From: Escherichia coli O157:H7 | GTDB lineage: Bacteria > Pseudomonadota > Gammaproteobacteria > Enterobacterales > Enterobacteriaceae | DNA: 64,000 nucleotides | Direction: 5' to 3' (one strand) | Assembly (NCBI RefSeq): GCF_013167455.1 | Contig: NZ_CP038328.1 | In this document: in pieces, positions 22,657-24,357 of the stretch | Layout: the number at the start of each line of letters is the position of its first letter | How positions within the stretch are numbered: position 1 is the stretch's first letter | The notes under the pieces: model-generated | Database searches by the model: none | Seen by the model: the letters and a program-made list of their open reading frames with translations, nothing else | Told to the model about the DNA's origin: nothing | Made by a program: the position numbers and the translations under genes

Positions 22657-22680
22657 GCTATCAGTTTGTAAGTCAGAAAG

Positions 22681-22707
22681 CCGCCGACATGTTCGGCGGT
22701 TTTTTTT
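22681..22707. terminator. rho-independent (probably bidirectional) terminator between nuoN and yfbM
   Basis: stem ccgccga/tcggcgg followed by T-run, flanked by A-run on the other side; between convergent genes. Confidence 0.8.
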
Positions 22708-22722
22708 GGTGCCCTGACACCA

Positions 22723-23226
22723 TCACCCAACAATAACCGTCAGCGCATGATTCCCTTGTCGCAGCATACGTCGATACGCGCTAATCAGCTTTTCCATATC
22801 AAGCATGATCGAAGCAAAGAGTTGCCCCTCTAACTCTTCTGAAAAGGTCACTCCCGGATAAATCTCCATTTCATTGAGTCGCTTAATGGAAAACTTTTTA
22901 CGCAGCTCACTTCGATCCAGTGATTCCAGTCGGTCGATTGTCGCGGCTAACTCCTGATTCCATGTCAATCCCAGGAAACCATCTATACCATCTTCGAGGC
23001 TGTGTTCACCAAGCACGGCACGACTCAGCGGATCATTCTTCGCTGGATCGAACGCAGAGGTGCCTGTCAGCCCAAAGTGTAAAAAATCCCAGCGTTTATC
23101 AATATCCAGTCGGCGTAATCCTGAAAGCGTGTCATGTATATTATCCATCAAAGGTTTTTCAGTAGACTCAAGCAGTTGGTTAATCTTTTCTGAGTCAATT
23201 TCTGCAAAATAACCAATCATTCCCAT
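22723..23226 (-). CDS. yfbM: DUF1877-family protein YfbM
   Basis: 167-aa ORF recognised as YfbM; function unknown. Confidence 0.85.
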   Translation of the reverse strand: MGMIGYFAEIDSEKINQLLESTEKPLMDNIHDTLSGLRRLDIDKRWDFLHFGLTGTSAFDPAKNDPLSRAVLGEHSLEDGIDGFLGLTWNQELAATIDRLESLDRSELRKKFSIKRLNEMEIYPGVTFSEELEGQLFASIMLDMEKLISAYRRMLRQGNHALTVIVG

Positions 23227-23328
23227 TTATTTTTCCTCCATTGAATTTTATGTTTCGCATCTTAAAACAGACGAGGGAAAATAAAATGTACATGTCGCTG
23301 TTTCTGGACCCGCCTCGAGAAATTTTTA

Positions 23329-23968
23329 TTATTTACTGTTGTGTAACAAAGTTATAACACCATCCACCATCTGAGCCATTTTCTGATAATTCAATCTGTC
23401 TGCTGTATCACCGGGCAAGTGGTATTGTTTATTACGATAAAAAGCGGTGTCAGTAATCATTACGGCGAGAATATCGTGTTGCCAATAATTAAGGTGGTCA
23501 GAGAAATCAATACCGTGAATAAACCATGGGGCATTCATAGAATAAACAGATAAATCCCGGGATGATAACAATGCCGTTTTTACCTGACGAACGGCGTTGA
23601 TATCCTGTATTCTGCCGACCAGGCAATAAAGTCCCCCCGATCGGGATAAAGCCAGGACATTGCGGGTAAGGGTAATCCTGGCTACCAGGCGCAGAGTCGT
23701 AATAGCCAATTGGGGACGCCCTGCGCGGTAACTCTGGCACCGCTACTGACAAAGACCTTTTTTTATATACTCTACGGACCTATTCAGATTATCAATATTG
23801 TCGGCATTACGTGGATGCACAGTTTGTGTAAGATAACGAACTGTTTTTTCTAATTGCTCAGGAATTACGTGTCGGGGCGTTGGCGATAATGCAGTGACCC
23901 AGGGTTGGTAAAAAATAATCAGAGGGAGTGAAAACAGAAATAATATAACAAAAGGAAAATTTTTTTCA
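23329..23968 (-). pseudogene. yfbL: decayed M28-family peptidase gene (yfbL-like)
   Basis: ATG at 23968 followed by A7 run then early stop; signal-peptide-like and peptidase-like sequence continues in another frame, hits an in-frame TAG, and the C-terminal M28-like segment (TDTAFYRNKQYHLPGDTADRLN) is in ORF 23329..23709; total ~213 codons versus ~320 expected, central catalytic core missing. Confidence 0.6.
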
Positions 23969-24307
23969 TATGTAAATTATCAATAAAAGACGTTATTTTA
24001 TCATTATTTATAATGAGTTATGAGTGTTTGTTTTATTACGGTTGTTAGATCTATACAAAAAGTATCTTTTACAGTGGCTTCGCTATTTTAAAAAGGAATT
24101 CATATAAGGAAAAATATAATTATGTTATTTATTGGCAGATTGAGTTGACAGGGGGCAGAAATCTGAGGGTAAGAAAAGTCAGCAACAACAATCCACTACA
24201 TCAACAGACCAGCAATCGCGTGCCGAGATACGCTGGAAATACCCGAAGATTGAACTGGCGGGTGGTGTGACTGACATCAGTCAGTGATGACTTTTTAGCA
24301 AACTATG

Positions 24308-24341
24308 TTCGACCAGTCAGCATATTTGCTGACTGGTCGAA
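24308..24341. repeat. perfect 15-bp inverted repeat (stem-loop) 17 nt downstream of elaD stop
   Basis: ttcgaccagtcagca-tatt-tgctgactggtcgaa; no adjacent U-run on either strand. Confidence 0.7.
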
Positions 24342-24357
24342 TTAATTAACAATGATG

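Follow-up and report, generated by a model that had tools for sequence, protein, structure and literature searches.

A compact nuoN-elaD interval in O157:H7-like Escherichia coli as a probable common allele at a variable accessory locus

Early genome comparisons of O157:H7 with K-12, reportedly those of Perna and colleagues and of Hayashi and colleagues in 2001, are said to have delineated K-12-specific segments known as "K-islands." The interval examined here, which lies in a window of 64,000 nucleotides (the whole stretch of DNA that was analyzed), presumably corresponds to K-12-specific segments of those original comparisons. As with the K-islands, the backbone is collinear, and K-12 carries yfbP, yfbO, and yfbN (here yfbNOP), yfbK, and part of yfbL, all of which are missing from O157:H7. 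The window itself matches O157:H7/O55:H7 genomes at 99% identity or more. Beyond the K-island comparisons, the present analysis provides polarity for these differences as well as population frequencies, drawn from a sample of 5,426 complete E. coli genomes.

A second point of reference is the concept of integration and replacement hotspots between E. coli core genes, reportedly set out by Touchon and colleagues in 2009. Like such hotspots, the locus bounded by the conserved genes nuoN and rbn holds different gene sets in different strains and genera. Unlike integration hotspots, it contains no integrase, tRNA, or attachment repeats, and it looks like the product of recombination replacement combined with illegitimate deletions. 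We consider it very probable that the 1.7-kb nuoN-elaD interval represents a common allele at an accessory locus with multiple alleles, flanked by the core genes nuoN and rbn.

Variation in elaD has been described previously. Neither the ExPEC strains compared by Catic et al. 2007 (PMC1847702) nor the B2 strains of a more recent study (Front Microbiol 2025, PMC12575377) carry the gene, and several strains have it as a pseudogene (PMC1847702, PMC12575377). Its presence or absence varies among the loci compared here as well; unlike in the published variants, elaD is intact in the window, and the variation concerns its neighbors. The terms yfbK, yfbL, and flanking synteny have 0 occurrences in these two elaD papers, and the literature on yfbK, yfbL, yfbM, yfbN, yfbO, and yfbP that our search returned consists of incidental gene lists, with no paper found on yfbK/yfbL variation. 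The compact arrangement is itself present and annotated in thousands of public genomes.

Structure of the interval between nuoN and elaD

In the ORF calls, nuoN ends at 22656 (stop codon TAA, 22654-22656) and the edge of elaD lies at 24358, leaving a gap of 1,701 bp whose gene content is an intact yfbM and a dead yfbL only (Table 1). A first-pass annotation of this DNA had described the 1.7-kb gap, and its coordinates and description proved exact. The K-12 order that it gave (nuoN, yfbP, yfbO, yfbN, yfbM, yfbL, yfbK, elaD) is indeed that of MG1655, in which six genes lie between nuoN and elaD. Its figure of about 5 kb was wrong, as the K-12 interval measures 6,123 bp, for a size difference of 4,422 bp between K-12 and the window. 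When the pieces absent from the window were mapped by BLAST against MG1655, they fell at 2387439-2389999 (yfbNOP), at 2386122-2386447 (326 bp inside yfbL), and over most of yfbK. Of the 4,422-bp difference in size, 2,544 bp (about 58%) are due to the yfbNOP block, and the 4.4 kb as a whole is the sum of separate, independent events of different polarity.

Table 1. Coordinates of features at the nuoN-elaD locus, as positions in the window
Feature	Position	Strand	Description
nuoN, last gene of the nuo operon	21199-22656	+	485 aa, intact; ORF; annotated as NuoN in strain 2017C-4109
nuo operon terminator hairpin with T-tract	22675-22707		13-bp stem, -23.7 kcal/mol, z = -3.6 (folding)
Unoccupied-site sequence, 17 bp, TTTGGTGCCCTGACACC	22705-22721		K-12 has the 2,561-bp yfbP-yfbO-yfbN block instead
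yfbM (DUF1877/YfbM family)	22723-23226	-	Intact, 167 aa; ORF; RefSeq "YfbM family protein"
yfbL pseudogene (M28 metallopeptidase remnant)	23329-23969	-	Start codon at 23967-23969, original stop at 23329-23331
yfbL 326-bp deletion junction	23710/23711		Out-of-frame; removes aa 88-196; 3-nt AAT microhomology
yfbL-yfbK divergent intergenic region, AT-rich	23970-24103		Highly diverged between layouts
yfbK 5' remnant	24104-24225	+	About 122 nt; aligned to intact yfbK of UTAK-23, K-12, and DA61218
yfbK internal fragment, 22 bp	24226-24247	+	20/22 match to 5017-5038 of L004 (intact yfbK)
yfbK 3' end remnant	24248-24287	+	Last 40 nt including stop codon; 96% identity to L004 5252-5300
Inverted repeat between convergent yfbK remnant and elaD	24308-24341		Self-complementary BLAST match
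elaD (ElaD/SseL-family deubiquitinase)	24358-25581	-	Intact, 407 aa, 35% GC; RefSeq annotation

The complete genome of strain 2017C-4109 is 100% identical to the window over 22400-24600, and there RefSeq annotates, in order, nuoN, yfbM, a "hypothetical protein, frameshifted" (pseudogene), an ElaD/SseL deubiquitinase, rbn, elaA, and elaB. Given this identity, and given 2,031 complete genomes with the same yfbL junction, the chance that the arrangement is an assembly or annotation artefact is close to nil.

The nuoN side of the locus is 98.4% identical to K-12 in DNA sequence over 21000-22704, and the nuo terminator has the same sequence in the K-12, B1-like, B2-like, and diverged Escherichia loci and in every layout compared at this junction. 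With an invariant terminator throughout these loci, the variation evidently spares the nuo operon. From nuoN into the interval, G+C falls from 0.55-0.62 to 0.33-0.47. The YfbM protein differs from that of K-12 at 2 amino acids and had no match in NCBIfam, while ElaD shares 87.7% amino acid identity with its K-12 counterpart. The inverted repeat between the convergent yfbK remnant and elaD is conserved in K-12, ETEC4077, and UTAK-23 and is likely a shared terminator.

A scan for promoters and terminators returned 8 promoter-like sites, a count too near the expected 5.0±2.7 to be informative, and missed the obvious nuo terminator, which folding confirmed. An Rfam scan of 22400-24600 at E<=1 yielded only sub-threshold chance matches, the best of which reached 29 bits (gathering score, 141). 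Neither an RNA gene nor any other concealed feature was thus detected in the AT-rich spacer.

The nuoN-yfbM junction and the yfbP-yfbO-yfbN block

The K-12 block lies just past the nuo terminator and has a GC content of 39.8%, compared with 57% in nuoN. Its carriers number 1,015 of the 5,426 complete genomes (18.7%), and 985 of these 1,015 match at >=99% identity. The unoccupied junction, detected with a 100-bp query spanning it, is found in 4,395 genomes (81%). A near-identical copy of the 17-mer TTTGGTGCCCTGACACC also occurs in the diverged Escherichia L007, where it is flanked by the terminator and yfbM. As the unoccupied form is present both in 81% of genomes and in this diverged Escherichia, K-12 is the minority state at the nuoN-yfbM junction.

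These counts bear on the idea of an unusual contraction, by approximately 4 to 5 kb, of this strain or lineage from a K-12-like ancestor through loss of yfbP, yfbO, yfbN, yfbK, and part of yfbL. All six genes are present in K-12, and the remnants of yfbK and yfbL indicate that both were truly lost, as a contraction would have it. However, there is zero trace of yfbNOP in the window. In its place stands a 17-mer that neither island allele contains and whose junction is shared by 81% of genomes and the diverged Escherichia; moreover, the compact layout is carried by 37% of genomes versus about 19% for the K-12 type. We thus consider such a contraction improbable. The first-pass annotation had viewed the interval as contracted, and an unusual contracted state is not supported by the frequencies of its parts: 81% for the unoccupied junction, 53% for a missing yfbK interior, and 37.4% for the yfbL junction.

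In a repeat search, no terminal or flanking repeats coincided with the ends of the K-12 block. The nuoN-yfbM site does not bear the marks of a mobile element or a site-specific island, and its 17 bp were replaced rather than duplicated. Transposition or site-specific integration of yfbNOP was rejected because of the lack of flanking repeats at the block ends. NCBIfam searches with YfbN, YfbO, and YfbP matched no family, mobility-related or otherwise, and so gave no hint of what the island genes do. The most economical reading is that yfbNOP would have been acquired in the K-12 lineage by replacement via homologous flanks, with homologous recombination through the flanking core DNA as the most likely route of entry. 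The window has the unoccupied site just 3' of the nuo terminator, and K-12 along with roughly 19% of E. coli carries yfbNOP in place of the 17 bp.

A second island allele and homologues in another genus weigh against this direction, and the occupied state may be old too. The second allele, in strain UID2309220013, is yfbO/yfbN-like, lacks yfbP, and has a GC content of 36.9%; it is 84.5% identical to the K-12 block, sits where that block sits, shares its right junction, and lies in a different background that lacks elaD. The equivalent interval of Superficieibacter contains homologues of YfbN (49%) and YfbP (62%). Occupied and unoccupied forms could therefore predate the diversification of E. 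coli and have been shuffled among lineages by homologous recombination, in which case the history would be neither a gain in K-12 nor a loss in the window. The unoccupied form in the diverged Escherichia would also fit such an old presence/absence polymorphism, as would the mosaic distribution of the yfbL signal-peptide and intergenic segments between layouts. On the other hand, the 985 carriers at >=99% identity look like one recent lineage, and island matches at 80-90% identity amount to about 24 genomes, one of which (UID2309220013) was inspected. An ancient polymorphism is a real possibility in our judgment, although one we would not expect to hold. Whether gain or polymorphism applies, the nuoN-yfbM site of the window is in an old and widespread state, one that did not arise by recent loss.

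In a NuoN search of genome contigs, the matches listed comprise a single diverged Escherichia, as the close outgroup, and scattered Enterobacterales. Since E. albertii, E. fergusonii, and Salmonella are not among these matches, outgroup polarity rests on few genomes.

Remnants of yfbK and yfbL

Three stubs of yfbK remain in the window. In the 5' remnant, deletions of 3 nt and 5 nt have abolished both the start codon and the cysteine codon of the lipoprotein box. The 22-bp internal fragment, for which the chance expectation of a 20/22 match is about 2e-7 over 1.6 kb, is found in the ETEC4077 layout as well, and the 3' remnant is collinear with K-12 from 2384034 onward. These stubs are separated by a 1,350-bp and a 213-bp deletion (junctions at 24225/24226 and 24247/24248), and the vWF_A, VWA, and YfbK_C domains that intact YfbK carries at aa 111-577 are all gone. 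The survival of 5', internal, and 3' stubs identifies the absence of yfbK as a deletion.

Across the sample, the yfbK interior is present in 2,540 of 5,426 genomes (46.8%) and missing from 2,886 (53%). The diverged Escherichia L007, with about 85% DNA identity here, also carries a yfbK deletion; because its breakpoints differ, yfbK must have been lost at least twice. In Superficieibacter electus and a Pseudocitrobacter MAG, a divergent yfbL/yfbK pair adjoins rbn, with 62-67% amino acid identity. The occurrence of the pair beside rbn in other genera indicates that it predates Escherichia at this position, and again that the absence of yfbK is a loss.

The yfbL remnant is homologous to intact yfbL of ETEC4077 and UTAK-23, with 93-98% identity per 100-column block in the flanks on both sides of the deletion. 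Relative to ETEC4077, the closest intact allele, it carries indels of -1 near 23621, -1 near 23662, -326 at 23710/23711, +1 near 23758, and -4 near 23958. The reading frame, about 323 codons when whole, is interrupted by stops in all three frames, and RefSeq labels the remnant a frameshifted pseudogene; NCBIfam returned no match for the 126-aa ORF that remains. In intact ETEC4077 YfbL, the M28 domain (PF04389) spans aa 95-317, and the 326-bp deletion takes its first half, leaving the domain incomplete. Included in the deleted part are HYDS, GADDNASG, and SEEPP stretches, which in M28 enzymes would carry metal ligands.

The 326-bp segment is present in 3,311 of 5,426 genomes (61%) and lacking from 2,115, and the exact deletion junction was found in 2,031 (37.4%) as a contiguous match to an 80-bp query. 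Of these junction matches, 308 are at >=99% identity; O157:H7 and O55:H7 are among the rows listed there, and the window is accordingly assigned to the O157:H7/O55:H7 clade. Among the remaining carriers are E. coli W, ATCC 8739, a B-strain derivative, and O91:H21. The whole 2.2-kb region is found at >=95% identity in 2,076 genomes, a figure so close to the junction count that nearly all carriers of the yfbL deletion appear to be fully compact. The fully compact layout is the commonest single layout countable here, at 37% versus about 19% for the K-12 type.

Both the 326-bp and the 4-bp deletions are common to all four compact genomes compared (O157, O55:H7, W, and ATCC 8739). The indel set of O55:H7 DEC5D is that of the window, while W and ATCC 8739 carry extra indels of their own, and the yfbL remnants diverge by 2.4-4.7% between lineages. 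The combination of common lesions, lineage-specific frameshifts, and this divergence points to a founder lesion followed by neutral decay. The separate frameshifts would then have arisen later in each lineage, as expected of a decaying pseudogene.

An adaptive ("pathoadaptive") loss, in which YfbK and YfbL would be disadvantageous in enteric pathogens such as O157:H7, would agree with the placement of the window in the O157:H7/O55:H7 clade, with the missing yfbK interior in over half of genomes, and with the independent yfbK deletion in the diverged Escherichia. Yet the identical deletion junction occurs outside this clade, in W, ATCC 8739, and B95 delta A, which are non-pathogenic or laboratory strains, and STEC O111:H8 retains both genes. 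With the lineage-specific frameshifts and the divergence of the remnants fitting neutral decay, we regard an adaptive loss as very unlikely and favor a shared, decaying lesion.

The simplest order of events would place the loss of yfbK first and the yfbL deletion second. yfbK, a vWA-domain lipoprotein gene, was destroyed by its two repeat-independent deletions, and yfbL, a signal-peptide M28 gene divergent from yfbK, would then have lost 326 bp in a yfbK-less background. ETEC4077 has an intact yfbL alongside the same two yfbK deletions, making the yfbK loss wider and, most simply, older. The totals are compatible with nesting (2,886 genomes without the yfbK interior versus 2,115 without the yfbL segment); nesting of the yfbL deletion within yfbK-less genomes was judged from these matching totals, a 40-row sample, and identity bands rather than from a per-genome table. 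Short direct repeats, which the first-pass annotation had envisaged at deletion junctions, are absent: the yfbL junction has a 3-nt AAT, the yfbK deletion ends have 0-1 nt of microhomology, and the island ends have none. Judging from these junctions, the deletions appear to be illegitimate and repeat-independent, and are accompanied by one replacement. The gene loss proposed by that annotation is apt for yfbK and yfbL, whose losses are true, old, and shared, and improbable for yfbNOP.

The region separating the two remnants differs strongly between layouts. Over 23929-24118, identity per 100-column block is 66-82% to the yfbK-bearing loci and 85-86% to the locus with intact yfbL and no yfbK. 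Across 23929-24225, the window, B-type, and diverged-Escherichia alleles all stand roughly 75-80% from one another. With alleles so far apart from one another, the divergence of this segment gives no indication for or against its import from another species.

Tentatively, YfbK (a vWA lipoprotein) and YfbL (a signal-peptide M28 peptidase) could form a coupled, divergently transcribed envelope module in which YfbL depends on YfbK, although we lean against it. This putative coupling is suggested by the occurrence of the pair beside rbn across genera, by the decay of yfbL apparently only after the loss of yfbK, and by the loss of yfbK at least twice. If it were true, natural strain sets with both genes, yfbL only, or neither would give access to the function of two long-uncharacterized y-genes.

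Layouts between nuoN and rbn

Seven E. coli layouts (A to G) were found between nuoN and rbn. K-12 represents layout A (yfbP, yfbO, yfbN, yfbM, yfbL, yfbK, elaD), and UTAK-23 represents layout B (yfbM, yfbL, yfbK, elaD). Stubs of yfbK lie between yfbL and elaD in layouts C and D, both of which retain yfbM; yfbL is intact in the former (ETEC4077) and a pseudogene in the latter, the layout of the window. Layout E (DA61218) has yfbM, yfbL, and yfbK without elaD, and in layout F (BH100) yfbM and yfbL are followed by a deletion from the spacer into elaD. In layout G, that of UID2309220013, yfbM, yfbL, and yfbK follow a shorter yfbO/yfbN-like block that lacks yfbP, and elaD is again missing. These structures and junctions, the population counts, and the division into shared and lineage-specific lesions were observed directly. 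Recombination would be the means by which the alleles spread.

The variability extends beyond E. coli. Among the Enterobacteriaceae matches listed, nuoN and rbn lie between 0.5 and 8.1 kb apart, with the extremes among these matches in Pseudocitrobacter faecalis (0.49 kb) and Superficieibacter (8.1 kb). Again among the matches listed, the distance is about 1.1-1.8 kb in Citrobacter, Enterobacter, Leclercia, Pseudescherichia, and Kosakonia and 4-5.6 kb in Pluralibacter and the Pseudocitrobacter MAG. With seven layouts in E. coli and this spread across the listed matches from the family, the first-pass description of a strain-variable hotspot is well founded. The compact state, for its part, is common among reference genomes, which is largely the finding that the first-pass annotation had named as counting against its reading, and the contraction framing is weakened accordingly.

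Taken together, the gap in the window is ordinary accessory-genome variation, and calling it "contracted" is K-12-centric. K-12 is a poor reference for the nuoN-elaD locus, with yfbN, yfbO, and yfbP being accessory genes of about 19% of strains. In the annotation of O157:H7-like genomes, the yfbL remnant should be treated as a pseudogene and 24104-24287 as yfbK debris. The significance beyond such bookkeeping is small, with one modest lead in the seemingly linked losses of yfbK and yfbL. Sporadic IS insertions were also seen among the locus matches.

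Gene content of the nuoN-rbn interval

The 'K-12-specific' yfbN and yfbP gene types are also residents of this locus in a second genus, as indicated by homologues of YfbN (49%) and YfbP (62%) between nuoN and rbn in Superficieibacter electus. This 8.1-kb interval also encodes homologues of YfbL (62%) and YfbK (65%) together with three further, unrelated ORFs, and contains neither YfbM nor ElaD.

The site downstream of nuoN carries a second allele in E. coli UID2309220013, comprising yfbO-like and yfbN-like genes without yfbP. This allele is 84.5% identical to the K-12 yfbP-yfbO-yfbN block, has a GC content of 36.9%, shares the right junction of that block, and is carried in an elaD-less background. 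The K-12 island was matched at 80 to 90% identity in about 24 genomes, of which UID2309220013 was the one inspected. In the window, a consensus terminator scan of positions 22500 to 24500 did not report the nuo terminator, which is clear and has strong support from folding; this miss calls for caution about the sensitivity of the scan.

Coordinates of features at the nuoN-rbn locus
Feature	Sequence	Position	Detail
nuo terminator	window	22675-22707	
yfbL-yfbK intergenic region and yfbK 5' stub	window	23929-24225	
yfbK deletions	window	24225-24248	1,350 and 213 bp
elaD	window	24358-25581	407 aa
yfbK deletion	L007	13100-13620	labelled E. coli SCPM-O-B-8794
nuoN-rbn interval	L011	4480-12580	S. electus
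Second allele downstream of nuoN	L089	4972-6604	E. coli UID2309220013

Allelic classes of elaD

The window ElaD is only 87.7% identical to that of K-12 (403 amino acids), whereas the neighbouring YfbM differs at just 2 of 167 residues. In RefSeq, these ElaD forms go by different names ('ElaD/SseL family deubiquitinase' and 'deubiquitinase ElaD'), and elaD is a pseudogene in three strains (O55:H7 DEC5D, ATCC 8739, and ETEC4077). Taken together, these observations indicate that elaD falls into deep allelic classes and that its inactivation is frequent.

Mosaicism and deletion at yfbL-yfbK

The segment made up of the yfbL-yfbK spacer plus the 5' stub of yfbK is 66 to 82% identical to yfbK-bearing alleles, and its part at 23929 to 24118 is 85 to 86% identical to the ETEC4077 (C-type) layout; the flanking DNA is far less diverged, at 93 to 100%. 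Since a B-type (UTAK-23-like) yfbL signal-peptide segment adjoins this C-type spacer, the locus is, judged from sequence comparison, a mosaic.

A yfbK deletion with breakpoints different from those in the window joins UTAK-23 positions 3655 and 5151 in SCPM-O-B-8794. This genome, a GTDB species representative with about 85% DNA identity in the region, lacks both elaD and yfbNOP at the locus; it appears to belong to a divergent lineage of Escherichia and not to E. coli itself.

Both yfbK deletions in the window are divisible by three, which has a probability of about 1 in 9 by chance. A shortened, in-frame yfbK may once have existed for some time, with its 5' end decaying later.
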